From Reclinomonas americana ATCC 50394 (taxonomy: Eukaryota): a DNA stretch of 43,185 nucleotides. Location of the stretch: contig PS015130.1 in NCBI GenBank assembly GCA_048213135.1, forward strand, positions 56,785 through 99,969, written 5' to 3'. Shown here piece by piece: positions 12,498-43,185 of the stretch. Numbering within the stretch: position 1 is the first letter of the stretch; every line of letters starts with the position of its first letter. Below the pieces are notes generated by a model. That model was not told the DNA's origin, made no database searches, and worked only from the letters and a program-made list of their open reading frames with translations. A program made the translations under genes and the position numbers.

Positions 12498-15385
<2,888 letters not shown>

Positions 15386-18112: not shown

Positions 18113-19641
18113 ATGCGCGCGCCAACCGCTCTCCTCCTCTCCAGCGCACTGCTATGCACCTACTGCTTGCTACTACTGTTGCTGCTGCTGGGAGACACTG
18201 GTGAGTGCAATTTGATATCGCGAGAGTGGCGTCTTTGTGCAGCTCACGCTTGTTCACAGTGACGGCGACGGACCTGCCTACGTTTATCACTCTCGGCGAG
18301 GAGGTGCATGTGTCTGTTTGTGCATGTTGTTTTCGCGGCCATTCACTCACGCGTTTGTGCGCAGCGGCGGCGCTGTGTGTGCATGTTTGCCAGCGATAGC
18401 GAATCTCAAGTGGCCCACATTGCCCTCAGCATTCAGTGCCATCAGCGGTGGTGTCAGGCCGATCCCGACAGTGGGCGGGTGACCAACGTCTTTCGCTGCA
18501 CATTGCGCGATTACCCTCCCGACGACATTCGTCGCTTCCCCTCCAACGTCTATCGTGGTGCGTGGGAGCTGGAGAGCGACGAGGTGCAGGTGCAGGCGCG
18601 CGCTGGTCTCAACAATGTGTGCCCACCTGCAACCGACAATCTGCACAGCTGGGTGCGTTTGCCATGTGCGCGCTCCGGATCTGTTGTTGCCGGTGCTCAT
18701 TTTTTTTTTTTTTTGCGTTGCAGCTGATTGACGACGACGCCGAGATGCGTACGGTGTCGCTGGGCGTCTCGTTCCCGAATCTGCCGGAGGAGATAGCAGG
18801 CATCGCCGTGCGTAACTGGATGCAGGTGCCGATGAAGCTCCCCAACGCCAACGGCCTGCCGCTCGTCTCGTGCCTGATGATCACCACCGGTCGAGTGCAC
18901 CTGGCCATGCGAGCCGTGCACATGTTCACACAACAGACGTATCCGCGCCGCGAACTGGTCATCGTCACGCACGACGACGACTTGACAGAGTTGCAGTCGG
19001 CGCTGGCGGCGTTGGTGGGAACCGCAGGTGGCGAGGCGGATCGCATTCGTGTCAAACAGGTCGACCGACAGTCGGTGCCGACGCTTGGTGACATGCGCAA
19101 TGTGGCGGTGTCGGAGGCCGCCGGCGAGTTCGTGGCCACGTGGGACGACGATGATGTGTACGATCGCGATCGTGTGCGAGTGCAACTGATGGCGATCCTG
19201 GCGGCGGGTTCACGCGAATCGACGGTGGTCGGCTGCGTGCTGCATCGCGTGCAGGTTCGCCTGGCTGCCGATCTGACTGCCGACGAGGACGGTCGTGCGT
19301 TCTCCAAGGAGTCTGGCCTCGGCATTAGCCACCACCATCCGTGGGAGATGACCATGTTGATGTCCAAGGCACACATGGAGCCCTTCGCGTCGAAACAGCT
19401 GGGTGAGGACTCGGCGGCTTTGGAGGCCGTCAACCGCAAGTACTCGGTGGTGTGGCTGGACGACCCGGCACTGTACACATACTTTTACCACGGTGGCAAC
19501 ACGTGCAAGGCTCCGCACTTTGCACACATTTGGCGCTCCGTCTCCGTCACGTTCACCGGCACCGCTGCGACCCGGCTGGTGGCGCAGACGCAGAGAAGAG
19601 CCGGCCTCGACGCTGACTGGAACATTCCGCTGCGGCAGTAG
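18113..19641 (+). CDS. GT2 (GT-A fold) glycosyltransferase with signal/anchor and Cys-rich domain; divergent copy 0
   Basis: Hydrophobic leader exon, then RRRCVC...CHQRWCQADP...FRC...W...VCPP...W exon, then one long exon (18724-19641) with PLVSCLMIT, QTYPRRELVIV, TLGDMRN, GEFVATWDDDD (DxD), GED and YFYHGGNT. Confidence 0.85.
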
Positions 19642-19810
19642 TTTGAATAGTAATGAATGGTGATTGTAATACGTTCCCGCTTGCAAGCTTGCGCAGCAAC
19701 TTCGACGTTACCTCTGCCAACCTCGACCGCGGGAAATTTGCGCGCGAAAAAGTGCCGCTGCGCACTGATCAAGCAAAACAAGCGTAAGAGGTGCACACCT
19801 GCGGGCATCC

Positions 19811-22800
19811 ATGGCCACCACGCGCCCTGTGTGGCTGCCTCTCATTGCGTATGCTCTGCTTGGTGAGACTGCAGGCGGTTATTGGCACTCACACACACTC
19901 ACATCTTTTGCTGACTGTGTGTGTGTGCGTGTGTGTGTGCGTGCGTGTACGTGTGTGTGTGCCTGTGCATCGAGCAGTGTGTCTGGTGTACGCACCTAGT
20001 GGCGCACTCGCCCAGTCGTTTCGTCTCACTAGCGTCGCTTACGATGCACCATCAATCGCCGCGGGCGACCTGATTGGTTTCATTGTTGCTGTCGCACCCA
20101 CGGACGACGCCGACTGGACCTACGCCATCGGCAACTGCGTGCCCTTCTACGTGGACAGCACCTCGTCGCCACCCTCTCTGCGCGTGAGTCGTGCGGGTGA
20201 GAGTCGCGATGCACTCAGCGTGACCATTGTGGGCACCTACCGCTCCTCGGCCGTGGTGTCGCTGTCGTTTGTGATTCGTGTTCGTCCGCCTCTGTATGTT
20301 CTCAATGGGGCCGTCGACTACGCGAATGCGTCAGCTGCCGCCACACTGGTCACTGTGAGAGCGAGCTCCGGTCAAGTGCTGTCGGTGAGTGCAATGTGCG
20401 CGGCAGCAGCACTCGCAGCGGTTTCGCCCTGATGCTGACTGTGGTGTTTGCTGTTGCGCAGTCGGTGGCCATGAGCGGCACTCCTGGATACACTGCACTG
20501 GCGGTGCATCCGACCACCGGCACACTCTATACGATGCGTAACAGTGCGGCAAGTGCAGCCGCACTGCTGACCGTGGATGCAACGGTGCGTAGAGTAAATA
20601 TTTTTTCTGCAGTGAGTCGGTGCTCATGTGTTGTGGCCGCGGCTACAGTCGGGCACCACTGCCTTGGTGGGGTCTACCACCGGCATTCGTTCGTGGACTG
20701 GTCTGGCATTCCGCTCCGATGGTCAGCTGTACGGTTGGGCCGAGTATAACACGAGCAACGTGGCGGTGGATCGCCTGTACAGGATCGCGCTGCCCGGCAT
20801 GACTCTCACCGCCCTCTCACCGACACCGTGTCTGCAATACTGCGTCAGTGTGGCCATCTACTTTGATGCTAATGATGTTGCGTGAGTATCGCAGCACTGC
20901 GCCTTGTCTGTCTCTCCTGCTCATCATCACCATGACCACCACCGCTCGACAGAATCTCTACCGCAAATCCGGTATCGTGCTGATGCAGATGAATTCGGCG
21001 ACTGGCGTCGATGTCGGCTCTGCGCGCACGCTGGTCAGCGATCCCGGCTCGGATCCACTGGCCATTGTCGGTATCGACGGAGTGCTGTATGTCGGCCGTG
21101 GCGACGTCAACAATCAAGTCGTCGGCTCGCTGTACAGTGTGAACGAGTCCACGCTGGAGGTCAGCTTGACCGGCTCAGGAGCGTACGGCCGGTTCAGTGG
21201 AATGGCCTTTGGCGTCCCCGCTCCACTGGCATGCACCGCCGGTCTTGCTTGTCCTGGCGCGTGCGTACCCGATCCCAGCAACATTCAAGAGCCATTCATC
21301 TCCACTGTGAGCATGGTGCCGGCGGTGCCGACGTTGAACCAACCGCTCACTCTCGTGGTGATCGGCGGCAATTTTACGCCGTGCTCCGCTGTTTCACTGG
21401 AAGCCGCTGACGCGCCATGCAGCGGGTCGAACGCACCGAGTGTGTCCGCGCTCTCTGTGACTCGCACGCGGTGTAACGGCTGCTACTGTGCCGGCTTGGA
21501 GATCTCGCTGCTGCTCACCAGCAATGCCTCGTTGCACGTGTGCATCCGTCGCTCCGACGCCGCCTCGTACACCACCTCGGCCAAGTCCGCAGCGCCTCTC
21601 GTTGTTGGCAGCCGTTGCGTGCTGGCGCGCGCTGTGTGTTCCTACGTGGGAGATCAGCAATTGAGAGCTCACGCGTGTGTGCATTGCAGAAATTCGAACC
21701 GGTACTGTGGATTCTGCTTCGTTGCCGTCGTTTTCCAGCAGCGGCCTCGCGTCCAGCTCTGGTGGAACGCGCTCATGGACTTTTCCGATCACGTTTACGC
21801 CGCCATTTGGTGAGTGCCTGTGAGACTGTGCGTGTGCGGTATCGTTTGCTCACCGATTCCCCCGCCACCAGCTGGCACGCCGGCTGTCATGCTGGCCATC
21901 GCGGGTGTCACATTCGGCACCCCGCACTCGCGAATTTATTGCTCCTCCGAGGTTTGCTCGTGTTGTCATTCTACGACATTGTCGCATCTACTCACCTGCC
22001 ATGCGTGTGCGTCTGCCAAGGCCGTGCGGGCTGGACAGGTTATCTGCAAGTGCACGACGCATGGGTGAGTGTGTGTGGGTGCCTGTCTGACGACGCTTTT
22101 GTCAAGGAGCCTTGAACGCTCACGTCGTGGAATGCTGTCGCAGTGCCTCCGTCATCACTGCCCTGCACATTGCCTATTTGGCGCATTACACCAACAAGAC
22201 GAGTGAGACTCGCAACAATACGGGTACTCTGTTGTATTCGTCGCTGGAACGTCGCGACTGGTGCGTGTGTGGCTGCGACTCCACGAGTACTTCTCTGTCA
22301 CTCACTCACGAGAGAACGCCCAGGTGGAGTGGACCCACCACCGACGACGAGCTGGACATGCGCGTCATCACTGTGACCGAGCCACTGCTGGGGTATGAGA
22401 AGGGCCAGGAGGCGCCGTCATTAGTGTTTGGCGTGCGACACGCTCACCTGCTGCCGGAGACGGCCAACGCGTTCACCAGTCGCATGACATTTTCCAACTG
22501 GCAGTACTTTAGACACCAGTTGCGTGCCGCGTACTGCTCGGTCTGTGTGCGCGCTCATATTGTGTCCACTCATGAGGCCGTCGGCACGCAGAGTGTCAGC
22601 CGTCGACGACTGTCGCCTCAGTATGCTGGCGTTTTCGTGGATGGCATACCCACGTCCACCCACAAGTGGTAGCGGTATTGGCATGCAGTCTGGCGTGGGG
22701 CGCCTGCTGGCCGACGGTGCATGCAACACGCATGCCTTCGCGCCGGTTTTTGCCAGTCCTCCGCAAGTCGCAGCGTTCGCCCGCGGCTGGCAGTTTACGC

Positions 22801-23036
22801 AAAGCAGCAATGCTGCGAGCGGGATCAGCTTCGATTTGACCATTGGAGCGCAGTCAGAAACGGCAATCTCAGTGTGTCTCACTGCCACACCACCAGTCGC
22901 CGGTGGTCCCACAGGTGAGCGTGAATTCGAAGTTCATACTGGTGCAGCTGCTTTTTTCCTTGTCTGACCTGATGATGATTTCGTCTCTGCAGTGGTGTTT
23001 GTTGATTACTCGTGGGGCGCCATCGGGCAAGTATGA
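19811..23036 (+). CDS. Secreted multidomain protein: cadherin-like domain, beta-propeller-like repeats, Ig/IPT-like domain, three C-terminal H-type-lectin-like repeats
   Basis: Signal peptide MATTRPVWLPLIAYALL|VCLV. Cadherin-like GDLIGFIVAV...WTYAI...PFYVDS. Propeller-like ALAVHPTTGTLY and TGLAFRSDGQLYG. IPT-like PFISTV...LTLVVIGGNF. Lectin-like GTRSWTFPITFTPPF|AGTPAVMLAI...LHIAYLA and FAPVFASPPQV...DYSWGAIG. No C-terminal transmembrane segment is visible. The gene call is firmer than the domain calls. Confidence 0.65.
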
Positions 23037-23148: not shown

Positions 23149-24764
23149 ATGCTTATGTGGTGGCATTGGCTGCTATGTGTGGTCGCCGCCATCTTGCTGC
23201 ATGTGTGCGCGGTCGCAGCGGCCAATGGTATGAAGAGTGGTGGGTTTGAGAGCACCAAATTTCGATAATCATCGTGTGCACGCATGCATGCGCAGACCGC
23301 AATCCATCCTTCGTTACCGCGCATGAGACTGAGGTGCGTGGGCATATATGTGTGCGTGTGTGCGACAGAGAGAGAGAGAGACAGAGTTCGATTGTTTGAC
23401 TGCGTGAATCCGTACATGCTGCTGTGTGCGCGGCAGCGACGACGCTGCACGTGTCCCGATTACTTGGGATTGCTGCCCAGTGAAACCACCTTGTGTGGTA
23501 AACGATGGTGCCAGGTGGATCCTGACACTGGCCGCACTTTGGTGTTCCGGTGCACCCGGCGTCAATACGAGGGTAACACGCACCGACTGGATGTGAGCGC
23601 ACAGCACAGCGGTGGCTTGTGGCGACTGGATAAGGCCGTTCATACGCGACAGCATCTGGACAAGGTGTGTCTACCAGCCACGCACGGCATGCACGAATGG
23701 GTAAGTGCATGTGTTGTCGCATCAGCAATTGTATGCGCTCTCTCTGTGCTCAGTCCGCGCTCGTTGTCGCATTCAGCTGGCGACGAAAGGTGGTGCGTAC
23801 GCGTGCAACTTGAGGCACTATTGCATGTTTTGGTTGTTGTTGTCGTTGCTGTTGCTGTTGGTGGTCAACTTTTCCCACGTGTGCAGGCTTGGAGGATATT
23901 GCGTACACCATTCTTGAGCCAAAGGTGAACCCGGCAGTGGAGGCGACGCCGCTGCCGCCACTCACATCTGACGTGCCGATGGTGTCGTGCTTGCTGGTGA
24001 CGCGAGGCGGTGCGCGCCTCCGCTTGGCCATGCGCGCCGTGCACATGTTTATGCAGCAAACACATCCGCGGCGTGAGCTGCTGGTGGTGACGGAGACCGA
24101 GCATGTTGCGGAGCTCGCCGCAGCACTGGAGGAGTTGGTGGGCAACGCGGTGGAGCAGCAAGTGGCAGGCGTGCGGTTGATTGGCGTGGAGAGGAATGAG
24201 GCGCCGACACTCGGCGACCTGCGCAACTTTGCGATTCGTGAGGCCGTCGGCGACTACGTGACGCAGTGGGACGATGACGATGTGTACGACCGCGATCGCA
24301 TCACCGTGCAGCTCCACGTTCTGCGCAAGCTGCAGAGCGAACGTTCCGCCGACGCTCGGCCACTGGTCGGTATCGTGCTCTGTCGGGTGATGTTGTACGC
24401 CCCGGCCCTGCATGCCGATGCTGTGTCGATCACACATCGTCGAGTGTGGGAAGGCACGCTTCTGTGCCTGCGGTCGCACATGGCGCTGTACTCGTCGGAT
24501 GCACGCGGCGAAGACTCGGCTGCATTGAACAAGCTGCGAGAGAAGTACGACTTGGCGGCAGTTGACGCGCCCATCCTCTACTTGTACACCTTCCACGGCG
24601 ACAACACGTGGGACGACACGCACTTTCGCTACCACTGGTCAGCCGCATCGGTCAGCTTTTCTGGCCAGGCTGCACAGCTGCTGTTGGCGCAAGCCAAGGA
24701 GCGCGCCGGGCTCGATGGCAACTGGGAGATCCCGACGACGGCGTACCGTAATAGACGTCAATAA
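23149..24764 (+). CDS. Signal peptide, Cys-rich domain, GT2 glycosyltransferase; tandem copy 1
   Basis: Five exons including a 16-nt micro-exon at 23777-23792. MLMWWHWLLCVVAAILLHVCAVAAAN leader, RRRCTCP...CGKRWCQVDP...FRC, PMVSCLLVT, WDDDD, WEGT, GED, HGDNTW. Confidence 0.88.
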
Positions 24765-24933
24765 AGGGGTCGGATGCAGTGAGTGTGTGTGTGTGTGCGC
24801 GCACGCTGTGTGCAGCGATGTCGAGGAAAAAGAACGACGTCGGCCGACGTCGCCGCGAGTGACGACTTCGCCTAGAGTCCTGCCAACCACATTTCCCGCC
24901 ATTTCGACTCGTCGTGTACGCGGTGTTCCCCAC

Positions 24934-26551
24934 ATGCGTGTGTGGTGGCATCTGTTGCTGTGTGTGGTCGCCGCCATCTTGCTGCATGTGTGCGCGGTCG
25001 CAGCTGCCAATGGTATGGGGAGTGCGGTGAGTCCACGTTGGGAGAAACCAAACTGCGATAATCATCGTGTGCACGCAGACCGCAACCCCTCCTTCGTCAC
25101 CACGCAAGACAGTGAGGTACGTGTGCGTGCACGTGTGCGTGCGTATGTGTTTGTTTGTGTTGCGTCGTCTTGTACGTGTGAGTCTTCTGTTTGTTCGTGT
25201 TTGCCCCCGGCACGTACTGATCATGAAGTGTGCGACAGCGACGACGCTGCACGTGCCCCGATTACCTGGGGGTGCGGCTAAATGATACCACCATGTGTGG
25301 CCAGCGGTGGTGCCAGGTGGATCCTGACACTGGCCACATCCTTGCGTTTCGGTGCTTCCGGCATCGACAGGCGCGACATGCTTCTTTGATGAATGTGAGT
25401 GCCAATCATTCTGGTGGCGCGTGGCGGCTGGACAAGGTCATACACGCGCAGCAGTTAGTGGACAAGGTGTGTCCACCAGTGGAGCAGGAGATGACCGAGT
25501 GGGTGAGTGAGCGGCTCGTGTTGCGCGCATTTGTATTCTTTCGCACTGATGCATTGCACTGGCACCACTCACGCAAACAGCTAGCGTCGAAGGGTGGTAC
25601 GTACTGTACAGGTTTCAGTTGCTGCTGGTCAACTTTTTGCTGTGATTCATTCTGTTGCTGTGCACGTGCACAGGGTTGCAAGGCGTCGGTCACTTTATCC
25701 TCGAGCCAAAAGTGAAGCCGACGAAAAAGCCGACGCCGCTGCCACCACCCTCGTCTGACGTGCCGATGGTGTCGTGCTTGATGGTGACACGAGGCGGCGC
25801 GCGCCTCCGCTTGGCCATGCGCGCCGTGCACATGTTCATGCGGCAGACACATCCGCGGCGCGAGCTGCTGGTGGTGACGGAGACCGAGAACGTGGCGGAG
25901 CTCGCTGCAGCCCTGGAGGAGCTGGTGGGCGACGCGGTGGAGCAGCAAGCGGCAGGCGTGCGGCTGCTCGGTGTCGAGAGGAATGAGGCGCCGACACTGG
26001 GCGACCTGCGCAACCTGGCGATTCGTGAGGCCGTCGGCGACTACGTGACGCAGTGGGACGACGACGACGTGTACGACCGCGACCGCATCACCGTGCAGCT
26101 CCACTATTTGCGCAAACTGCAGAGCGAACGTTCCGCAAACGCTCGGCCACTGGTCGGTGTCGTGCTTCATCGGGTTATGTTGTACGCCCCGGCCTTGCAT
26201 GTCGATGCTGTGTCGATCACGCATCGTCGAGTGTGGGAGGGCACACTGTTGTGCCTGCGGTCGCACATGACACGCTACTCGTCGGATGCACGCGGCGAAG
26301 ACTCGGCTGCATTGGACAAGCTGCGGGAGGACTATGGCTTGGCGGTGATCGACGCGCCCATCCTCTACATGTACACCTTCCACGGCGACAACACGTGGGA
26401 CGACACGCACTTCCGCTACCACTGGTCAGCCGCATCAGTCAACTTCACTGGCCACTCTGCGGAGTTGCTGCTGGCGCAAGCCAAGGAACGCGCCGGGCTC
26501 GACGATAACTGGGAGATCCCGGCGACGGCATACCGTAATAGACGTAAATAA
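24934..26551 (+). CDS. Signal peptide, Cys-rich domain, GT2 glycosyltransferase; tandem copy 2
   Basis: Same five-exon structure (micro-exon 25581-25596), open reading frame, same motifs. Confidence 0.88.
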
Positions 26552-26690
26552 AGGGGTTGGAAGCAGTGAGTGTGCGTGTGGCGTATGTGGCGACGACGAG
26601 AAAAGACCACAGCGTCTACGTCGCGACTTCGCTGTTAGTCCTGCCTCATCACTCGTTCCCGCCATTCCGTGCGTGTAGCCAAGGTTTCTC

Positions 26691-28239
26691 ATGCTTTTGT
26701 GGTGGCATTTGCTATTGTGCGTGGTCGCCGCCACCGTGTTGCATGCAATCGCAGTCGCAGCTGCCAATGGTACGATGAGAGTGTGCTTTCGAAACCAAAT
26801 TGCAGTGCTCATCATCGTGCACACAGATCGCAATCCCTCTTTTGTTGCAATGCAAGACAATGAGGTGAGAGGAGAGGGAGAGAGTTCGTGTGTCTTGCAT
26901 GTGCATGTGTTTGTTTCGTTTCCAACACGTGCGACAGCGCCGACGCTGTCTGTGCCCCGATTACTCGGGAGCGGTGTTCCTTGATATGACGATGTGTGGC
27001 CGACGATGGTGCCAGGTGGACCCGGAAACTGGCCGCACGCTCGTGTTTCGGTGCACGTACACACAAAACAGCGACACAAACTTCTACCGACGAGGCGTGG
27101 ATCTGACGCACAGCGGTGGCTCGTGGCTGCTGGAAAGAGACGTACACGCACAGCAGCAAGTCAACGAAGCGTGTCCACCAGTCGCGCACGACATGAGCGA
27201 GTGGGTGAGTGGGACTTGTCGCAGCGGTTCTTGCATGTATTTGTGTGCGCTCAGTTTGCCGTCGATGTCACTTGCAGCTGGTGGCAAAGGGTGGTGTGTG
27301 ACTGGATGTCAGTTGCTGTTGATCAACTTCTCTCTGTGATTCACTCTGTTGCTGTGCACAGGGTTGCAGGGCATCGGTCACATTATCCTCGAGCCGAAGG
27401 CGAAGCCGGCAGTGGAGGCGACGCCGCTGCCGCCACTCACTCTTGACGTGCCGATGGTGTCGTGCTTGCTGGTGACGCGAGGCGGTGCGCGTCTCCGCTT
27501 GGCCATGCGCGCCGTGTACATGTTCATGCAGCAGACACATCCGCGGCGTGAGCTGCTGGTGGTGACGGAGACCGAGCATGTCACAGAGCTCGCTGCTGGC
27601 TTGGAGGAGCTGGTGGGCGACGCGACGGAGCAGCAAGCAGCAGGCGTGCGGTTGATTGGCGTGGAGAGGAACGAGGCGCCGACACTCGGCGACCTGCGCA
27701 ACCTGGCGATTCGTGAGGCCGTCGGCGACTACGTGATGCAGTGGGACGACGACGATGTGTACGACCGCGATCGCATCAGCGTGCAGCTTGGTTCGCTGCG
27801 AACGCTGCAGAGCGAACGCCCCGCAGACGCTCGCCCACTGGTCGGTGTCGTGCTTCATCGAATTCTGCTCTACTCCCCCGTCCTTCAAGTCGACGCTGTG
27901 TCAGTCACGAATCGTCGAGTGTGGGAAGGCACGCTGTTGTGCTTGCGGTCGCACATGACGCTGTACTCGTCGGATGCTCGCGGCGAAGACACTGCGGCGT
28001 TGGACAAGCTGCGAGAGAAGTACGATTTGGCGGTGATTGACGCGCCCATCCTCTACTTGTACACCTTCCACGGCAACAATACGTGGAACGACACGCACTT
28101 CCGCTATCATATGCAGGCAGCATCGACCAGTTTCACCGGCCACTCTGCAGAGTTGCTGCTGGCGCAAGCCAAGGAGCGCGCGGGACTCGACGACAACTGG
28201 GAGATCCCAGCGGCAGCATACCGTAATAGACGTCAATAA
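26691..28239 (+). CDS. Signal peptide, Cys-rich domain, GT2 glycosyltransferase; tandem copy 3
   Basis: Same five-exon structure (micro-exon 27278-27293), same motifs. Confidence 0.88.
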
Positions 28240-28326
28240 ATGGTGGCGAGATAGATGATACTCGAATCTTATTTCTCCGACGTTTGCAGTATGTCCGCCG
28301 TCGAGGGACACATAATAATATTGATC

Positions 28327-30010
28327 ATGCGTGTGTTGTGGCAATTGCTGCTGTGTGTGGTCGCCGCCATTGTGCTGCATGCATGCGCAGTCGCGGCTGC
28401 CAACGGTGAGAATGTGGTGCGGTTTTGCGAAACATGCAAACAAACTGATTGCTCATGATCATGATGTGCATGCGCATATGCATGGCATGCGCATGCACGC
28501 AGACCGCAATCCATCCTTCACTACCACGCAAGACAATGAGGTGTGCATGTGTGTGTGTGTGCGCGCGTGCGTAAGTGTGCACTAGTATGTTCTCTCTGTT
28601 CGTGAGTGTGAGTGTGAGTGTGTGGTGTGCTTCGGAGTGGCTTTCGGTTTGCTCTAATGTGTGTCCGTGATGCAACAGCGACGGCGTTGCGTGTGCCCCC
28701 ACGACTCGGGAGTGAAGTCGCTGGATCCCGTGATGTGTGGCCAGCGGTGGTGCCAGGTCGACCCACTCACTGGCCGCACGCTGGTGTTTCGGTGCGCCTA
28801 CGCAGAATATCACAACACACTCTTCTACCGACGAGCCCTGGATGCAACGTACTACGGTGGCCTCGGCGCGTGGCGACTGGACAGAGATATACACGCGCAG
28901 CAGCAAGTCAACGAGGTGTGTCCGCCGGTTGACCATGATATGAGCGAGTGGGTGAGTGGTTGTGTTTTGTCGCAGCGTCACTTGCACGTTGGTTTTCTGT
29001 GTGTTCTCAGTTCGCACTCGGTGTCGCGATCGCTGCTTGCAGCTGGTGGCGAAGGGTGGTATGTGAAGCTTGAAAGCACACACTTTATATCGCTGGTTTC
29101 GGTCTGCCGACTCAGTTGCGCTGCGTGCACAGGGTTGCAGAACATCGGCTATCTCACCGTCGTGCCTACTGCGAAGCCGGCAGTGGAACCGACGCCACAG
29201 CCGCTGCCGTCGTCGACAGTGCCAATGGTGTCGTGCTTGCTGGTGACGCGAGGCGGTGCGCGTCGGAGTATGGCCATGCGCGCCGTGTACATGTTCATGC
29301 AGCAGACACATCCGCGGCGTGAGCTGCTGCTCGTGACGGAGACCGAGCATGTCGCGGAGCTCGCTGCAGCACTGGAGGAGCTTGTGGGCGACGCGGCGGA
29401 GCAGCAAGTAGCAGGCGTGCGGTTGATTGGCGCCGAGAGACACGAGGCGCCGACACTCGGCGACCTGCGCAACCTGGCGATTCGAGAGGCCATCGGCGAC
29501 TACGTGATGCAGTGGGACGATGACGATGTGTACGACCGCGACCGCATCCGCGCGCAGCTCCACATTCTGCGCACTCTGCAGAGCGAACGCCCCGCCGACG
29601 CTCGGCCACTGGTCGGTGTCGTGCTTCGCCGGGTCCTGCTGTACGCCCCGGCTCTGGATGTCCACTCGGTGTCAGTCTCGTATCGTCGAGTGTGGGAGGG
29701 CACACTGTTGTGCCTGCGGTCACACATGACACGCTACTCGTCGGATGCACGCGGCGAAGACACCGCCGCGTTGGTCAAGTTGCAAGAGATGCACGATGTG
29801 GTGATGATAGACGCGCCCATACTCTACTTGTACACCTTCCACGGCAACAACACGTGGAACGACGAGCACTTCCACAAGCACGTGCAGAGTGCGTCGGTCA
29901 CCTTCTCTGGCCACGTTGCAGAGTTGCTGCTGGCGCAAGCCAAGGAACGCGCCGGACTCGACGACAACTGGGAGATCCCAGCTGCAGCATACCGTAATAG
30001 ACGTAAATAA
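28327..30010 (+). CDS. Signal peptide, Cys-rich domain, GT2 glycosyltransferase; tandem copy 4
   Basis: Same five-exon structure (micro-exon 29043-29058), same motifs. Confidence 0.88.
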
Positions 30011-30136
30011 AGGGGTCGCTGCGGATGCAGTGCACGCACGCGTGTGGCGACAAGAAGGAGCGACGGCGGGACTTCCGACGGAGTCCTGCCAAAACATCAC
30101 CCATTCCCGCCATTCAGTGCGCACTTGGTGTTCCCC

Positions 30137-31840
30137 ATGCGTGTGTGGTGGCATTTGCTGCTCTGTGTGGTCGCCGCCATTGTGCTGCATGCATGCGCAG
30201 TCGCGGCTGCCAACGGTGAGTGTGGTTGCGCGCTGCAAACTGAAATCAGATTGATTATGATGCACACATTCTCATATGTTGGCATGCGTGCAGACCACAA
30301 TCCCTCCTTTGTTGCCACGGCAGACATTGAGGTGTGTGTACATAAGTGTGTGTGAGAGAGAGAGATGGTACGCTTCTCTCTGTTGGTGTGACTGTGACGA
30401 GTGTGTGTGTCGTTTTACGTGTTTGTGTGTCAATGCGCGTAGCTGCGCACCCACTGCTGCTGGTTTGCTCTGCGTGCGACAGCGGCGACGTTGTGTGTGC
30501 CCCCACGACTCGAGAGTGGAGTCGCGCGATCCCATGATGTGTGGCCAGCGGTGGTGTCAGGTCGACCCACTCACTGGCCGCACGTTGGTGTTTCGATGCA
30601 CTTATCCGGAGGAACGCGATCTAGAAACACTCTTCTACCGGCGAGGCGATGATCTCACGTTTCTTAGCGGCCGCGGCATATGGCGACTGGATAGAGACAT
30701 ACACGCGCAGCAGCAAGTCAACGAGGTGTGTCCGCCAGTTGACCACGATATGAGTGAGTGGGTGAGTGAGTCTTCTCGCAGCGCATCGTCTCTTGCTGTT
30801 GCGCATGCATGTTGTCTCTCTGCGTACATGTGCTCAGTTTCGTGCTCCCCGTCACTTGCAGCTGGTGGCAAAGGATGGTATGCAACGCTTGAAACACAGG
30901 AACTCAGCGGTGAACTGTTGGCTCACCGGTTTGCACAACCACAGGCCTCGGAGTGCGGGCAGAAAGCGCCGGCATCGGTTTCCTCGTCGTCGAACCTACG
31001 GTGAAGCCGGCAGTGGAGGCGACGCCGCTGCCGCCACCCTCGTCGAACGTCCCGATGGTGTCGTACTTGATGGTAACACGAGGCGGCGCGCGCCTCCGCT
31101 TGGCCATGCGCGCCGTGTACATGTTCATGCAGCAGACACATCCACGGCGTGAGCTGCTGGTGGTGACGGAGACCGAGCATGTTGCGGAGCTCGCTGCTGG
31201 GTTGGAGGAGTTGGTGGGCAACGCGGCGGAGCTGCAAGCGGCAGGCGTGCGGTTGATTGGCGCCGAGAGACACGAGGCGCCGACACTCGGCGACTTGCGC
31301 AACCTGGCGATTCGTGAGGCCGTCGGCGACTACGTGACGCAGTGGGACGACGACGATGTGTACGACCGTGACCGCATCACCGTGCAGCTCCACGTTTTGC
31401 GCACGCTGCAGCGCAGTCGTTCCGCCGACGCTCGCCCACTGGTCGGTGTCGTGCTTCATCGAGTTATGCTGTACGCCCCGGCTCTGGATGTCCACTCGGT
31501 GTCAGTCGCATGTCGCCGAGTGTGGGAAGGCACGCTGCTGAGTCTGCGGTCGCACATGACACGCTACTCGTCGGATGCACGCGGCGAAGACACAGTGGCG
31601 TTGGACAAGCTGCAAGAGAATTACGACTTGGCGGTGATCGATGCGCCCATCCTCTACTTGTACACGTTCCACGGCAACAACACGTGGGACGACGAACACT
31701 TTCAGGAGCTCGTGCAGATGGTGTCAGCGAGCTTCTCTGGCCACGCTGCACAGCTGCTGTTGGCGCAAGCCAAGGAACGCGCGGGACTCGACGACAACTG
31801 GGAGATCCCGGCGACGGCATACCGTAATAGACGTCAATAA
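30137..31840 (+). CDS. Signal peptide, Cys-rich domain, GT2 glycosyltransferase; tandem copy 5
   Basis: Same five-exon structure (micro-exon 30862-30877), same motifs. Confidence 0.88.
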
Positions 31841-31942
31841 ACGGTGACGATGGTGAAGGCTGTGCGCGATCGCTCACATCGTCTTGACAGGCTCAGCGGT
31901 GGGGCAACGTCGGTCGGTCTGCGTCCCACACAACGATTTGCG

Positions 31943-32905
31943 ATGGAGAGCGCGGAGGTCACCCGCGAACGTGCCCGAGCGCGCAACACCGAGTCGTCGC
32001 TGCGTCGTGCCGAGCATTATGCCGCGGTGCGAGCGACGAGTTTTGTGGGAGCTGTCGACGAGAGCGCCCGATTTCATACCGGCGAGTCATTTTCCAACTC
32101 GACCGCCGGGAGCAGAAAGAGAGAGCGTGGTGGTGATGATGATGATGGGGGCAGCGGCAGCGGCGGGGAGGAAGAAGACGACGAGCCTGTGGAGAAGAAG
32201 AAGAGGCGAGTGCAGTCGTCTCGTGAGTTGTACGACGAGCTCGTGTCGAGCAAGAAGAGAGTGGACGAGGAGGAGACGACGGCGATCGCGACAACGACGA
32301 CGACCAGTGTGCAACAGACTTGGCGCTGCGAGGTGTGCAACGTGGAGGTGGCCGCGGAGGCGCGGGCGGGCCACGAGAGGAGCATCCTCCACTTGTTTTC
32401 CGTCAATCAAGGTCTGTCCCCCCAACTCCACACCCTCGCTTGCACTCTCTCAGTTTCTTTCTCACGCGCTGCTTTTCTTCTTCGTGGGAGCACAGATAAG
32501 CCGCCCGCTCGGCACTTTGGCGTGAGCGGCCGTGGATACAGCATGCTGCACCGCATCGGATGGGACGGCGAGGGCGGACTCGGTGCGCGCGAACAGGGGG
32601 TTGTGGAGCCCGTCAAGACTCGCTTCAAGAACGACCGGCTGGGACTCGGACATCGTGCAACGCTGCAACAACCGGCGCGTGTAACACATTTCCGCTCGGC
32701 GCACACGGAGAAGATGGTGCGCCAGGTGTCGCAGGAGCAGGAGGTGGCACAGGGTCGTCGGACGGCGGCCAAGGTGGCCGCCGATGTTGCCGCCGCCAAG
32801 GCTCAGGCTCGCGTGCCGAATAAGCGCGACAGGGAACGCTTGTGGCAGCGAGAGAAAGCGCGTGAGGCGTACCTGCGTGAGCTTCTCTACCACGACTACT
32901 GTTGA
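31943..32905 (+). CDS. G-patch domain protein with CxxC...H...H motif (like the GPANK1 C-terminal region)
   Basis: WRCEVC...HERSILHLFS, then RGYSMLHRIGWDGEGGLGAREQGVVEPV...KNDRLGLG (G-patch). One in-frame GT..AG intron near 32412-32496. An alternative start lies at 31850. Confidence 0.85.
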   Translation: MESAEVTRERARARNTESSLRRAEHYAAVRATSFVGAVDESARFHTGESFSNSTAGSRKRERGGDDDDGGSGSGGEEEDDEPVEKKKRRVQSSRELYDELVSSKKRVDEEETTAIATTTTTSVQQTWRCEVCNVEVAAEARAGHERSILHLFSVNQGLSPQLHTLACTLSVSFSRAAFLLRGSTDKPPARHFGVSGRGYSMLHRIGWDGEGGLGAREQGVVEPVKTRFKNDRLGLGHRATLQQPARVTHFRSAHTEKMVRQVSQEQEVAQGRRTAAKVAADVAAAKAQARVPNKRDRERLWQREKAREAYLRELLYHDYC

Positions 32906-34918: not shown

Positions 34919-36742
34919 ATGTTTTGGCTGAGCATTCTGTGCGCCCTGCTCGTCGCGTGTGGCGTGCTGGCGCTGATCGACCAGTGGACGGTGTGCATTA
35001 TTCACACTCGCACACACGCATGCATCTCCTCACCTGCACACACACACACACACAGCGTCGCAAGTCTGTGGAGAATGCATCGGCGACGGCCTCTGCTTCC
35101 GCAGCCAAGCCCACGCACGATCAAAAGGCGTTCCGTCGCTTCCGGCTGACGTACCTGGTGGCGTTCTTCTTGGCCTTTGGTTCGCTCCCTGTCGCGCGAT
35201 ATGCAGCAGTGAGCTTCCCGCCATTTAATCGCCATATGCATTCGCCAGGTGCCGACTGGCTGCAGGGTCCCTACGTGTATCAGCTGTACTCGGCGTATGG
35301 CTTCTCGCGCGGCACCATTGGTCTGCTCTTTATCGCCGGCTTTGGCTCGAGCTTCCTGTTTGGCACCGTGTTTGGATCGCTGGTCGATGTCTTGTTGCGT
35401 TGTTGCATGTCGACTTCTCCGGCCCACGCTGCGTCGTGGCATTGACACGCTTGGTGGGGCAGCGGGCGACGGGCAGGCGCGTTGCTGTACTGTGCGCTGT
35501 ATGCAGTCGCGTCGTTGACCAAGCACGTCAAGCTGTTCCCGGTGCTGCTGATCGGACGAGTGCTGGCCGGTGTCGCCACCTCGCTCCTCTACAGCGCTTT
35601 CGATTCGTGGATGGTGGCCGAGCACCACCAGCGCAAGTTCTCCACCGAGTCGTTGAGTAGCACGTTTGCGGTCGCCAACATCGGCAACTCGTTGGTGGCC
35701 ATCACCGCGGGCGTCGTCGCGTATTTTGTGCAGGCGTCATTCGGTGTGTCGCCCACCTTCTCTTCCATTCGTCTTGGTGAGCGCGCCCCACTGAGTGTGC
35801 GCGTGCAGGTCTGGTGGCGCCATTCGACGTGGCGGCCGTGCTCCTGGTGTTGTGTGCCGTGGTGGTGGCCATGTACTGGAACGAGAACTACGGGCAGGCC
35901 TCGCACAGCAGTCTCCAGCTCATTCGTCGCGCCCTGGTCTTGTCGCGCGCTGGTACACAAAGCACATACTCCACTTTTTTCCGATCGTCTTTCCCCTCCC
36001 TCTTACGTGTGCGACGAAAAATCACAGATTTCCGCATCTGGTGCCTGGTGGTGGCCGACGGACTCTTCCAGGCCTCCATGTTCACCTTTGTGTTCATGTG
36101 GACACCGGCGCTGGAGGAGTTGGAGCCGGAGATCCCGCATGGTGTCGTCTTCTCGACGTTTATGGTGGCCTGCATGCTCGGCTCCATGATCTTCAAGTTG
36201 CTGCGCTTGCCCGTTGGTCTCGGATTCTCGGCGGTCCTTGCCGTGGCGTGCCTGTGCATGATTGTGTCGACGGTCACCACGGTTTGTGTTGCTCCGAATA
36301 AGTGTGTGCGCGCGCGTTGCTGGACAACTCTGACCCACTGCACGCAGAGTGCCGTCGTCATGTACGCGGCCTTCCTCGGTTTCGAGGTGTGCGTCGGTGC
36401 ATTCTGGCCGTCGGTCGGCGTGTTGCGCAGTCGCCTGTACCCAGACGAGTGCCGCTCGGCGTTTATCAACATCTCCCGTTTGCTCATCAATGGCTTGGTG
36501 GTGTCCCTGCTGTGCAATGTTGCGCGGTGGCCACGAGAATGTCTTTGTTGTTGTCGTTGTTGTCTGCTGACTCGTGTGCTCGTGTCAGATTGGTGCACTG
36601 CAGACGCACGTGGTGTTCCTTCTCGGGAGCGTCTCGCTCGGTGTCTCCCTGGCTGCCTCGCTCGTGCTGCTCGGACGTGGCGACGAGGCCAAAGAGTCGC
36701 ATGCACCACCCGTCAAGGCCAACGACAAGAGCACCAAAGTAG
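34919..36742 (+). CDS. MFS transporter, MFSD5/MOT2 (molybdate-anion transporter) family
   Basis: GADWLQGPYVYQLYSAYGF, LFIAGFGSS, GSLVDVFGRR, GRVLAGVATSLLYSAFDSWMVAEH, APFD, WNENYG, SMFTFVFMWTP, PHGVVFSTFMVACMLGS, FEVCVGAFWP. Seven GT..AG introns. Confidence 0.9.
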
Positions 36743-36779
36743 AATAAACCAGATCTCCCTTCGTACAAACATCGTCGTT

Positions 36780-38881
36780 TTACCGGAATGCAGTCATGGT
36801 GCGTGTCGACAGTTCGCTGAGAATGTCGTGCGACACCTGACTGCACCAGGTGAGAGCTGTCAACAGAAAAACTGTGAGTTGAACGACAGAGAGAGAGTGA
36901 GGCGTCGACAATGGCACACCAAATTGTCTCAGTCGCGGGAGCATGGCCACCATTTTCCGCACACCATCTGGAGACGGACATGAGAGGCGACAACAACAAT
37001 AGTGAAGAGAGGGGCAGGCTGGCACTCACCATTGGTCACGTGGTGATTCCACGAAAAGTTCACCCTGTGACACCCAGTATGATGATCAGAAAAGGAATTG
37101 TGTTGTGCTGCTGACGAATTGCACTCACATGCGTAGCATTGAGCAGCGGCTTGCAACCTCGAGGAAACCAGCTTCGCCAACCTGCTTGCAACCCTCCATG
37201 ATCAACTCTTGCAGTCGCGGACAACTCGCCGCCAGCACCCCACAGAACAGATCCGTCACCTGCCCGCCAGCGGAAAAATGAAAAAAGCGACGAGCACGCC
37301 ACGCAACGCACACGCAGCACGCACCGGACACCAACTGACGTCCAGCATGGTGAGCTGCGTGCACGCTTCGACCACCTGACACAGACTCTCGTCGGTGAGA
37401 TCGTCGCAGCGACCGAGGTCGAGGTGCGTCAGATGCGTCAGGTGCTTCATGTACGCCGCCCCCACATCGGTAAGGTGGGGTGCCACACGCAGTGCGAGCC
37501 ACGTGAGTTCCGTACACCGCACGCTGAGCATCATGATCAACGTGTCTGTCGTGCATTGGGGTCGACGTCACCGAGTGAGGCACACTGCAAGCAGCACCAA
37601 CAAAAGGCAGACGGCACAACTCACCGTCCACACACTCGCACCAGGAGAGATCGAGCTCGGTGAGCTTGATAAGCTCCTGTGGAATCTCTGCAATGGCGTC
37701 GGTGTCGATCATGTCGCACTCGGGGAGGTACAGACGCGTCAAGCACGGACACTTCTTGCAGAGGGTGTTGATCGCCGTGTTGGTGACCTGCATGCAGCTT
37801 TTTTTTGGTACAAAACCACTCAGCGAGCGACTGCGAGTGCATGTTCTGCACACCTGACAGCCACGCAAGCTCAGCGTGCGCAGCGTCGCACCACTGCTGG
37901 ACACCAGCAGGCGAATGCACAGAGTGCTGACGGCGCGCACGCCATCCACCTTGACCTCACGCAGCGCGGTGAATCGCTGAAACATATCCGCAAACGCAGC
38001 CTCCTCGTCCATCCGTGTGCAAAACGACAAGTCAAGCGACTGCAGCTGCGCGTGTAATCTCTCATTGTTGGCCAGGCTCCACACGGGCGCGCACTCCAGT
38101 TGTGAACACTGCAGACAACACATCGTGGTGAGTATGCCACGAGCAGCAACAGCAGCAGCAGGATTCGCGCTTCATCCGCAACTTGCACCAGCGACAGGCT
38201 CGTCAGCGACGCCGGCGCCGATCGGCAAAAAAGCGAAGCGCCCGCATCGCTCACATGAGAGCAGGCCACCATTTCCAGCGTGGTCAGCGACGAGCACACA
38301 CGCGCCACAGTGGCCACAAACAGGTCATTGACAGTCTCGTCGCACCCACGCAGTCGGAGTACCGTCAGTGAGCCACCCATGGTTGTCGCCAGCATGCGCA
38401 GCGGTGCATCCGGGGCCGGGAAGGCCACACGCAAGTGGTGCAACTGCTTGCAGCTCTCGGCAACAACACCGAACACCTCGGCCGACGCCGCCACCTCGCC
38501 CGACAGCCACAGCTCCTCCAGTCCCTGCTCGCCGAGCTCGCTCACCAGTCGTTCCACTGCCATATACGCAGAACAGCGGTGAGGGAGTGAACCAGTGGAC
38601 TCTTGTTTGAGACGGACGCAACATGCAGAACGACTTGTCTCGGTCACCTATCGCACACAGCAGTGAGTGAATGTGATGATCAGACAACTGAATCACGATG
38701 TGCAAACGCAACTGTCGGTGGTAGGCGAAGCGACATCACACCTCCACTGCCGCACCGTTCGCGCACATGCTCCAGCACGTCCTCATCGATCTCGCAGCAG
38801 CACGTCAGGTTCGGCTCGGTGGAATCATTGGCCTCCACACACAGATCGACACGCTGCACAGAGCATTGTGTGTATGGATGC

Positions 38882-39187: not shown

Positions 39188-41123
39188 TCAGCACCATGTC
39201 GGATTGTGCTCCCAGTTGTACGCGTCGCACCACGTCTGCAATTGTGGATTGTGCAGGCCAAAAAGCGCAAAGGTCTCTTGCAAAAAGTCCTCATCAAGAC
39301 AGGGAGCCTGGCGCACGCAGTCGCACTGGTGAGCGTGTGGCACACACACACAATGCGGACAACGACAGCGGCACAACAACACGCACTCTTGCCATGTTCT
39401 GGATGCTAAAGTCGGGAATGATGGGTGTGTGCTCCATCTGGATAAACGACGACAGCACCGACGGCGATCGAATGCACTTGTCGTAGTAGCCGGGTGCCAC
39501 CGTGTAGTGCTGCAGCCGCTTGTTCATGCCAGCCACAGCAGTGCTGAATGTGGATGCGCGGGTACCGATAAAAACCTGCCAGTGGCGATGAGTGGACACG
39601 CAGCATGTCACCCTCCCTGCTCATTTTCAGGTCACGCAACCTCCGCCCGCGATGCCACCAGCATGTCGATCCACGCTGCATCCAGTTTGCCATCGGGGCC
39701 ACGACCCTTGGCGTCTTTGTTCCACACCACCATATCGCCAAGCATACTCTGCGCCTTTTCCAACACCGACGGCTGATCGGTGGCCACGTACACCTTGACC
39801 TTGTCCTCGTCCCACTTGTGGAAGCGGATGAGGCTCTCCACGCACTCGAAAAACACCTTGACCTGGTCCTCCTCGCCCTTGGGGAAGTACAGATCGTTGT
39901 CGCCGATGCGTCCACGACGAATGTGGATGGCCACCTGTCGTCGGCATCGCAGGTGTGAGCGAGTGTGGAGAACGAGAGGAGATGGTGAGGGGCCCACCTT
40001 GCAGCCGTCGGAGCCACACGATTTCCGCTCCACTTCGTCGGCAACCTCTTTCCAGTGTGTATTCGGTTGGAAGAACCACTGCCAGATGTGATTGAAGCCG
40101 TAGCCAATGTGCTTGTGCGTCCACTCACGCATGCTGGGGTTCAACAGCACCTGCATTGCGTGTGTGTGCGTGATGAGTTGATTGGCACAGCGCAGTGGAG
40201 GAAAGAAAGAGAGGGAGAGACGCAACAACATTCATCGGCAGCGCTCCTGACGGTTTCAGCATCCATACCGTGTCGTCGCCGGGCACTGCCTGACGGAAGA
40301 ACACCTGCATGCACAACATTATCGGTTGAGCTCAACTCCCGATGCCTGCCGCCGACGACGAGCGAGTGGAACACAAAACCTTCGGATCATCGAGGTTCGC
40401 CTTGGTGTAGTCGCTGCACATCGCATCGTGGTACTCGCCTGTTGACACGCCGAATGAGTCCAGAGAGGGGAGACGAAAGAAGAGAAGGGGGGGAGTTCGA
40501 GACGCAACACCAGGACGAGTGATGCCTCCTCCAATACGGCGCCGTGTGCAGTACCGCCTTGGCTTGATCTCTGTACGGCTGCGGCATGTGCTCGANNNNN
40601 NNNNNNNNNNNNNNNNNNNNNNNNNNNNNNNNNNNNNNNNNNNNNNNNNNNNNNNNNNNNNNNNNNNNNNNNNNNNNNNNNNNNNNNNNNNNNNNNNNNN
40701 NNNNNNNNNNNNNNNNNNCTTCGGCAGTGTCTGCGCATCGATCGACGAGTCCATCATACTATCGTGCAACTGGCGATAGGCAAACAGTGTCTCCTTGGCT
40801 GGCGCCACCAAGTCCTTGTCGCACACCGCCGACTGCGGCGGTGCAAACTTGGGTCGCGTCTGTCGCGCACACTCATCCTTCCAACTGACACGACGCGGTC
40901 TGGCAAACACGGGTGAGGGCAGGCTGGTCAGGTTCTGGAAGACCAGCACCGCTGCAAGCGAGTGTGCGTGCGCGTGGGCGAGGGCGTGAGTGTGCGAGGA
41001 GGGAGGGGCGGCATGTGTGACACTTGCGCGCACACACGCACCAAATACTGCAAATGCCACAAAGAAGAGGAGGAATGCTCGTCCACGAGGGGATATGTTG
41101 CGCCACCAGGATGGCGCGCTCAT
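39188..41123 (-). CDS. Type II membrane GT-B fucosyltransferase-like protein (alpha-1,2/alpha-1,6/O-FucT superfamily); contains an assembly gap
   Basis: N-terminal anchor AFLLFFVAFAVF|AVLVF, motif I VAIHIRRG, motif II VYVATD, motif III AWIDMLVASRAE|VFIGTRASTFS. Confidence 0.8.
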
Positions 41124-43013: not shown

Positions 43014-43106
43014 CTGCGACTGACGAGAGGTGCGCGTGCTGCACCGATGCAAGAAGAGAGAGTGAGAAAGAGAGAGAGAGAGTGACGTGGAGTGCTCTCT
43101 CCTCTC

Positions 43107-43108
<2 letters not shown>

Positions 43109-43185
<77 letters not shown>
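43109..43185. repeat. (GT)n microsatellite at window end, probably intronic in UPF3
   Basis: Direct reading. Confidence 0.95.

Follow-up and report, generated by a model that had tools for sequence, protein, structure and literature searches.

An orphan six-cysteine domain precedes the catalytic part of six predicted bacterial-type glycosyltransferases encoded by neighbouring genes of Reclinomonas americana

The stretch of DNA that we analysed, hereafter the window, comprises 43,185 nucleotides (nt) of contig PS015130.1 (forward strand, positions 56,785 to 99,969; assembly GCA_048213135.1) of Reclinomonas americana ATCC 50394, and it carries six genes for predicted glycosyltransferases (GTs) of family 2 (GT2), namely copy 0 and a tandem array of copies 1-5. 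We find that each of these six tandem or neighbouring genes encodes, ahead of its catalytic part, a Cys/Trp domain of 88-96 amino acids (aa) which occupies one exon per copy and matches no known family. We put at about even chances the reading that this is an orphan, lineage-specific six-Cys domain which, in an intron-dense protist, makes up the non-catalytic N-terminus of a bacterial-type GT2 family that expanded in tandem and serves there as a secretory accessory module. On this reading the GT protein would enter the secretory pathway through its N-terminal signal, the six invariant Cys would form three disulfides, and the domain, tethered to the catalytic part as an accessory, would bind or position for it a partner enzyme or an acceptor, either glycan or protein. 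Certain Golgi glycosyltransferases have stem or lectin domains whose role would be similar. For a glycosyltransferase to carry an accessory domain is a known kind of arrangement; what appears to be new here is the sequence family, which has no detectable relatives.

A six-frame scan for the motif W-C-Q-x-D-P, together with a scan using a hidden Markov model (HMM) of the six copies, places exactly six copies of the domain in the window, all on the + strand and each 5' of a GT2 exon. When the six-copy HMM is run against all six frames of the window, the copies score E values of 1e-47 to 9e-36 and every remaining stretch scores below 0. Copy 0 lies at 18365..18652 (+, 96 aa, HMM E 9e-36), with the loop that runs from FRC to the following W at 18500-18562. 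For the tandem array, the motif scan, alignment and HMM locate copy 1 at 23437..23700 (+, 88 aa, loop 23554-23619), copy 2 at 25239..25502 (+, 88 aa, loop 25356-25421), copy 3 at 26938..27204 (+, 89 aa, loop 27055-27123), copy 4 at 28679..28951 (+, 91 aa, loop 28796-28870) and copy 5 at 30483..30761 (+, 93 aa, loop 30600-30680). An initial annotation of this DNA had described a single-exon Cys/Trp domain before each of six GT genes, and the motif scan, HMM scan and splice bounds bear this description out: its span of 23439-30761, with copy 0 at about 18365-18652, agrees with the mapped coordinates within 2 nt, its wording of the motif matches the invariant pattern given below, and the five loop strings it quoted are exact.

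Alignment of the six copies yields 22 invariant columns (R1, R2, R3, C4, C6, C20, R23, W24, C25, Q26, D28, P29, G32, F37, R38, C39, G60, W62, L64, C78, P80 and W88), a set that includes an RRR triplet, six Cys and three Trp. The Cys are spaced C-x-C-x13(18)-C-x4-C-x13(14)-C-x38-43-C with no CC pair, and the alignment contains neither a CxxC knuckle nor a conserved His. Within this scaffold two segments vary and tolerate in-frame indels: the loop between FRC and W, which is 21-27 aa long and has pairwise identities of 4-48%, and a second stretch between CxC and CG. The domain exon is preceded by CAG and followed by GT(G/A)(A/C)GT in every copy, and its length of 264-288 nt is divisible by three, with splice phases that fall between codons. 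The Arg-Arg-Arg immediately 5' of the first Cys is encoded by the first three codons of this exon (25239-25247, for example); the third positions of these codons differ and Arg is kept in all six copies. Judging from its sequence, the triplet may serve for dibasic processing or may determine topology or charge.

The gene models, which are predicted from sequence, were obtained by aligning the six repeat units and then seeking in-phase splice sites. Copies 1-5 each have five exons: exon 1 (79 nt, start codon and hydrophobic segment), exon 2 (38 nt), exon 3 (the Cys domain, at the coordinates given above), exon 4 (a 16-nt micro-exon) and exon 5 (878 nt, linker and GT). Listing exons 1, 2, 4 and 5 in turn, and all on the + strand, copy 1 (424 aa, 23149..24764) uses 23149-23227, 23296-23333, 23777-23792 and 23887-24764; copy 2 (424 aa, 24934..26551) uses 24934-25012, 25079-25116, 25581-25596 and 25674-26551; copy 3 (425 aa, 26691..28239) uses 26691-26769, 26827-26864, 27278-27293 and 27362-28239; copy 4 (427 aa, 28327..30010) uses 28327-28405, 28503-28540, 29043-29058 and 29133-30010; and copy 5 (429 aa, 30137..31840) uses 30137-30215, 30294-30331, 30862-30877 and 30963-31840. 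Copy 0 (445 aa, 18113..19641, +) has four exons and no micro-exon: 18113-18200 (hydrophobic N-terminus), 18260-18303, the Cys-domain exon and 18724-19641 (linker and GT2). All 23 introns follow the pattern G/GT...CAG (the slash marking the splice site), the phases fit, and the six spliced frames are open over 424-445 aa. The predicted proteins share one order, from an N-terminal hydrophobic signal through a 13-aa segment, the invariant RRR, the Cys domain and a Pro-rich linker of about 45 aa to the GT2 catalytic domain. With the splice pattern as predicted, we take the Cys exon to be a genuine coding exon that is joined to the GT exon.

The micro-exon deserves separate mention. In copies 1-5 it forms a conserved block inside introns that are otherwise unalignable or saturated, and in copy 0 the equivalent sequence is continuous with the GT exon. 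The junction between Cys and GT exons accordingly holds one intron in copy 0 (18653-18723) as against two introns around the micro-exon in copy 1 (23701-23886) and in copies 2-5, which in terms of these gene models is an intron gain or loss between copy 0 and copies 1-5. A further peculiarity concerns intron 2 of the tandem copies (23334-23436, 25117-25238, 28541-28678, 30332-30482), which ranges from 73 to 151 nt and is rich in simple repeats of the (GT)n, (GA)n and GTGCGT-like kinds.

Each of the six proteins has a single strongly hydrophobic segment, and it is N-terminal: the best 19-residue Kyte-Doolittle mean is 2.5-2.8 at residues 7-8 in 6/6 copies, and elsewhere in the six proteins this mean is at most 1.55, with no further strongly hydrophobic segment. 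In copies 1-5 the N-terminus begins with an n-region that is basic or short, continues with a hydrophobic core of 11 residues flanked by a His on either side, and then has AVAAA, the hydrophobic segment ending in the small residues AVAAAN. By composition this looks like a signal peptide, with a signal anchor being possible. Disulfide stabilisation of the domain is plausible, given that its six Cys are invariant and follow a hydrophobic signal at the N-terminus.

The catalytic part is recognizable at several levels. In PF00535 scans, which covered the GT parts of copies 0, 1 and 4, copy 1 scores 28.6 bits and copy 0 scores 25.0 bits (cut-off 23.3); the open reading frame (ORF) that reads through in copy 4 scores 20.8 bits, under the same cut-off. 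Across 62 sequences the W-D-D-D-D (DxD) motif shows little or no variation, and its DDDD is invariant in the array copies. AlphaFold2 models the GT part of the copy 4 read-through ORF (67-row alignment) with a predicted local distance difference test score (pLDDT) above 90, and Foldseek matches this model to SpsA, heparosan synthase 2 and K4CP (E 1e-9 to 8e-12 for these three) and to other GT-A enzymes. The closest sequence relatives are 120 proteins found among 5.8 billion clusters, at 29-43% identity, with only bacteria among the organisms named. The 10 of these 120 that we inspected are of cytoplasmic type without a signal peptide, and none of the 10 has the Cys module, their N-termini starting at the first catalytic strand or being unrelated. 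A sequence search of the PDB with the GT part gave no match, and NCBIfam gave only weak matches to WcaA and TuaG. Taken together, the profile matches and the predicted model identify the catalytic exon as a bacterial-type GT2 of predicted GT-A fold. The likeness to SpsA, heparosan synthase 2 and K4CP, which comprises PF00535, the DDDD (DxD) motif and the confidently predicted GT-A fold, concerns the catalytic exon only; the bacterial GT2 enzymes differ from the array proteins in having no signal, Cys domain or linker, and their identity to them is at most 43%.

Searches for relatives of the Cys/Trp domain itself did not assign it to any family. Pfam returned no families for the six domain-containing ORFs at E up to 1, and when the 6 members were scanned one by one with the limit raised to E 10 it returned three unrelated families, in one member each and none common to the members (best E 0.12), with no zinc-finger family among them. 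No carbohydrate-binding family was found for the domain by Pfam or by a PDB profile search, the latter giving a single match, to ribosomal protein bL27m at E 0.94, and NCBIfam gave none with the Cys domain. Run against 1.84 billion representative proteins, the HMM has 11 matches at E up to 1e-3, each of them the sum of 4-9 weak stretches: six BACON-repeat proteins, one Sushi-repeat protein, three tandem-repeat or low-complexity proteins and one PPC-domain protein. We do not take these 11 as homologues, each of them summing weak stretches in a repeat protein.

BACON (PF13004 / PF19190) shares with the array domain a short motif, Q/R-x-W-C-x-V-x-P-x-(S/T)-G, followed by a strand, but it is without the six-Cys pattern. 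Local alignments were inspected for all repeats of one match (P0121) and for part of a second (P0122); in P0121 the BACON repeats score -0.3 to 11.4 bits each, centred on the short motif. An hhalign comparison of the domain alignment with 27 BACON repeats (from P0121, P0122 and P0127) gives a probability of 29% over 53 columns, and the Pfam BACON models have no match to the six copies at E up to 10. BACON domains often sit N-terminal to carbohydrate-active enzymes.

In the ESM Atlas the 30 nearest clusters are all unnamed (recognition value 2136 against a mark of 2300), and a word-based protein search with residues 1-95 of the copy 4 read-through ORF gave 21 candidates, of 243-776 aa only, none of which scored. 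Pattern-seeded scans produced four loci that we reject as chance: two in metagenome contigs, where KRWCQVDP is matched both times in a frame interrupted by stops, one in viral contigs in a GC-rich frame with a stop, and one in prokaryote genomes with a 21-residue match in a frame with stops. The W-C-x-x-D-P...C pattern bears a likeness to kringle and fibronectin type II motifs, one that no search supported: neither the Kringle nor the fn2 profile of Pfam matched the 6 members at E up to 10, and there is no PDB sequence match. Word searches of the literature found no description of the domain, although such searches cannot find a motif.

Structure prediction gave models of low confidence for the domain. 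Modelled alone from the six-sequence alignment, the domain reaches a pLDDT of 54, with a hairpin spanning WCQVD...VFRC, one more strand and some short helices; in the GT context (again the copy 4 read-through ORF with its 67-row alignment) it falls in blocks of pLDDT 25-54, so that confidence is not raised. A wide fold search with VIA-align on the pLDDT-54 model, itself uncertain, lists 27 chains at Z of at least 2, the best at 2.9 and none at 5 or above. Predicting a complex between the Cys and GT domains gave no verdict (score 0.00, run without the custom alignments), the partner fold being uncertain. Profile and structure searches with the six-sequence alignment had been suggested in the initial annotation, and they yield no match to a known stem domain; its statement that the domain belongs to no recognized family survives Pfam, NCBIfam, the PDB profile search, the HMM search of 1.84 billion proteins and the fold search. 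We regard the domain as apparently an orphan at the search depth used; restriction to the lineage is unproven, and proteins of this organism and of its close relatives appear to be absent from the databases. Orphan domains are common in poorly sampled protists.

Three published systems offer points of comparison. In POMGnT1 the stem domain, which is FAM3/PANDER-like, binds both the growing glycan and the partner enzyme fukutin (PMC8478517, citing Kuwabara et al. 2016). POMGnT1 resembles the array proteins in placing a non-catalytic folded domain between a membrane anchor and a GT-A catalytic domain in a glycosyltransferase of the secretory pathway; it differs in that no sequence or fold relation is detected, in that its catalytic family is another one, and in that binding by the array domain is putative. 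In B3GLCT, hypervariable loops of an N-terminal non-catalytic domain form the acceptor site (PMC13597200). The likeness there is an extra N-terminal domain with variable loops on a GT-A enzyme, acceptor recognition by the loops being a feature of B3GLCT; the difference is that the B3GLCT domain is a degenerate GT-A fold of about the size of the catalytic domain, whereas the array domain has 88-96 aa, six Cys and no detectable GT-A similarity. By analogy, we regard POMGnT1 and B3GLCT as functional analogues and not as homologues.

The third comparison is with the CysRReps, cysteine-rich repeats (Daugavet et al., bioRxiv 10.64898/2026.06.07.730663) which stand on the N-terminal side of enzyme domains of prokaryotic origin in eukaryotic proteins that are secreted, and which have the spacing Cx6-9Cx5-7Cx8-11Cx7-8CC. 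What these have in common with the array proteins is a signal peptide, a Cys-rich module found only in eukaryotes, an enzyme domain of bacterial affinity and an intron at the junction. The array module is, however, a single copy and not a repeat, and its spacing (C-x-C-x13/18-C-x4-C-x13/14-C-x38-43-C) has no CC. Because its Cys spacing differs from the published spacing, we do not count the array domain as a CysRRep member.

We now turn to the selection that acts on the different regions of the protein, measured on codon alignments of the spliced models of copies 1-5 through nonsynonymous (dN) and synonymous (dS) divergence and their ratio omega, by NG86 and by maximum likelihood (GY+F1X4). 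For the scaffold (53 codons), NG86 gives dS 0.93, dN 0.15 and a ratio of 0.16, and the maximum-likelihood omega is 0.21. For the loop from FRC to W (22-25 codons), dS is about 0.96 (saturated in 4/10 pairs), dN is 0.88 and the ratio is about 0.9 (0.91), with a maximum-likelihood omega of 0.83; for the segment between CxC and CG (13 codons) the corresponding values are 0.57, 0.50, 0.88 and 1.02. The linker has a ratio of 0.46 by either method, the signal peptide plus exon 2 have a maximum-likelihood omega of 0.40, and the GT part (262 codons) has dS 0.34, dN 0.09, a ratio of 0.27 and a maximum-likelihood omega of 0.28. Thus the scaffold is under strong purifying selection and, with its low dN/dS and many synonymous changes, the domain is not a product of chance, while the loop and the CxC-CG segment evolve at about the neutral rate. 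The pair of copies 4 and 5 illustrates both behaviours: their scaffolds are identical at 53/53 residues at a dS of 0.41, and their loops are 44% identical.

This region-by-region dN/dS comparison was among the checks that the initial annotation had named, and it gives no support to the diversifying selection attributed there to the loops. Two of the ten loop pairs have an NG86 omega above 1 (copies 1 and 4 at 1.61, copies 3 and 4 at 2.13), and Fisher tests on four of the ten pairs give no significant result (p 0.10-0.57). Nor do the loops diverge beyond the neutral background, which is one of two findings that the initial annotation had said would together refute it: in DNA matches per length the introns reach 0.49-0.60 (shuffled 0.47-0.54), the loop 0.61 (shuffled 0.54), the scaffold 0.80 and the GT part 0.87, so that the loop is not more diverged than the introns. 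The introns are near saturation, and their divergence is not below that of the loop. Since omega is near 1 and loop DNA divergence is not above intron divergence, the loops evolve about neutrally and do not outpace the introns; absence of constraint is the best account of their variability, adaptive diversification being undemonstrated, if still conceivable in loops so short, saturated and rich in indels.

Why, then, do the loops stand out so sharply against the catalytic exons? The initial annotation called the GT exons close to identical, which is too strong, as the GT parts of copies 1-5 share 79-89% of their amino acids with one another and only 42-46% with copy 0. In the adjacent exon the scaffold has a dS about 2.7 times that of the GT exon, and the contrast between loop and GT part therefore arises in part because the GT exon has evolved more slowly or been homogenised. 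Third-position divergence drops abruptly at the start of the catalytic domain, from 0.37-0.57 to 0.09-0.20 (23887-24764 and the GT exons of copies 2-5), where GC content at third positions rises from 0.67 to 0.77. Scaffold and GT trees (with c1-c5 for copies 1-5) agree on ((c1,c2),(c3,(c4,c5))), the GT tree being short and star-like and the Cys-exon tree deep. Proportional branch lengths for scaffold and GT are rejected when all codon positions are used (twice the log-likelihood difference 27.3, 6 degrees of freedom, p 1e-4) and are not rejected for third positions only (p 0.12). These patterns suggest gene conversion, possibly GC-biased, or a codon or GC constraint on the GT exon, and because third positions alone give p 0.12 we treat gene conversion as suggested and not established. 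Either process would exaggerate the contrast between loop and GT part.

These results bear directly on how the domain is to be understood. The initial annotation held that the domain is under diversifying selection and selects acceptors or partners; on that reading the loops would be positively selected, the loop of each paralogue would set a different acceptor or partner specificity, and the array would be a combinatorial specificity system. In its favour, the loops differ widely in sequence and length while the scaffolds of copies 4 and 5 are 100% identical, two pairs do exceed an omega of 1, all six genes have been kept intact, and the 5' exons retain deeper divergence than the GT exon. We nevertheless consider it unlikely, given an overall loop omega of 0.83-0.91, the Fisher tests, a loop DNA divergence that does not surpass that of introns, and a loop dN that, pair by pair, roughly equals or falls short of the scaffold dS (0.45 against 0.41 for copies 4 and 5, for instance, and 0.43 against 0.92 for copies 3 and 4). 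Another reading is a purely structural stem, a folded spacer or a module for oligomerisation, folding or quality control which has no ligand specificity and whose loops are unconstrained. The roughly neutral rate of the loops speaks for it. The domain is also in stem position, between the membrane or signal segment and the Pro-rich linker, and neither Pfam nor the PDB profile search detected a carbohydrate-binding family. Such a stem is possible, if on the unlikely side: 22 invariant positions, among them three Trp, a Phe, four Arg, a Gln and an Asp, exceed the needs of a spacer when the GT parts of copy 0 and copies 1-5 are only 42-46% identical, although a dimerisation surface may be compatible with them.

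Two further explanations concern where the domain resides, in the cell or in the gene. If the N-terminal anchor left the protein in the cytosol, the six Cys could bind zinc in place of forming disulfides. Basic residues tend to remain on the cytosolic side of a membrane, and the RRR lies 13 residues past the hydrophobic segment; the bacterial relatives are of cytoplasmic type without signal peptides, as some eukaryotic GT2 enzymes are likewise cytosolic, and the CxC and Cx4C pairs are possible metal ligands. The N-terminus of copies 1-5 is nonetheless like a classical signal peptide, the domain has neither a CxxC knuckle nor a conserved His, and no zinc-finger family matched, which makes a cytosolic metal-binding domain quite improbable. 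We give almost no weight to the suggestion that the Cys exon lies outside the GT protein, in a small gene of its own or in an untranslated region, as might be proposed with a splice pattern known from sequence alone and genes packed 87-169 nt apart, since exon order, phases and canonical splice sites are alike in 6/6 genes, the distant copy 0 included, the spliced frames are open from ATG to stop, and the GT exon alone has no ATG until the first catalytic strand and no signal. The accessory-module reading, for its part, has several points to contend with. The low confidence of the domain model makes any argument from fold or surface impossible; dS is saturated, the loop has 22-27 codons and its alignment is uncertain, and an omega of about 1 may hide positively selected sites among constrained ones; with bacterial relatives that are cytoplasmic enzymes, a cytosolic orientation may be possible for the array proteins too; and an alternative donor 4 nt 3' of exon 3, with the micro-exon skipped, keeps the frame in at least some copies. 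Under either choice of donor the reading frame continues from the Cys exon into the GT exon.

A more far-reaching version of the accessory-module reading, which we think improbable though worth stating, is that a bacterial cytoplasmic GT2 was recruited to the secretory pathway by the addition of a signal and a newly invented single-exon disulfide domain, and was then amplified in tandem, the catalytic exon being held uniform (perhaps by gene conversion) and the loops left free or selected, such that each paralogue would aim the same chemistry at a different acceptor. If so, this would be a modular glycosylation system in which one and the same catalytic part is combined with an aiming part that varies, and its basis would be a domain family without known relatives. 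Evidence so far shows only an orphan domain with unconstrained loops. Should the module bind, it would represent a new fold family of glycosyltransferase accessory domains and an example of a bacterial-type enzyme fitted for the eukaryotic secretory pathway, with signal, Cys-rich domain and linker each on its own exon. The array is in any case a compact natural experiment in which the scaffold is strictly conserved, the loops are free and the catalytic exon is more uniform, and it would suit the study of how paralogues diverge in specificity.

The tandem genes are packed closely. The spacers from stop to ATG between the five measure 87-169 nt (24765-24933, 26552-26690, 28240-28326 and 30011-30136), the TAA stop lies inside an AATAAA hexamer in 5/5 tandem genes, and a GTGAGT donor-like site occurs about 20 nt past the stop in the spacers between copies 1 and 2 and between copies 2 and 3. 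Spacers this tight leave little room for a promoter or terminator, and one may ask whether transcription reads through from gene to gene or is polycistronic. In the region 19788-22900 (+), which separates copy 0 from copy 1, there are long ORFs at 19788-20432, 20201-20749, 20803-21813 and 22091-22672, which are rich in Ser, Thr, Ala and Val and have no Pfam match apart from one weak match to DUF6391; from this composition, the gene or genes here could encode a secreted or surface protein. Runs of N (gaps or masked sequence) total 988 bases in the window, at 882-1462, 5543-5786, 6426-6445, 12663-12682 and 40596-40718, and none falls in the GT array. GC content is about 0.56-0.62 over most of the window, whose other genes encode a NACHT and WD40 protein (3477-7415, +), a G-patch protein directly after copy 5 (31841-32905, +), an MFS_5 transporter split over two ORFs (35446-36983, +) and a Smg4/UPF3-like protein (42318-43184, -).

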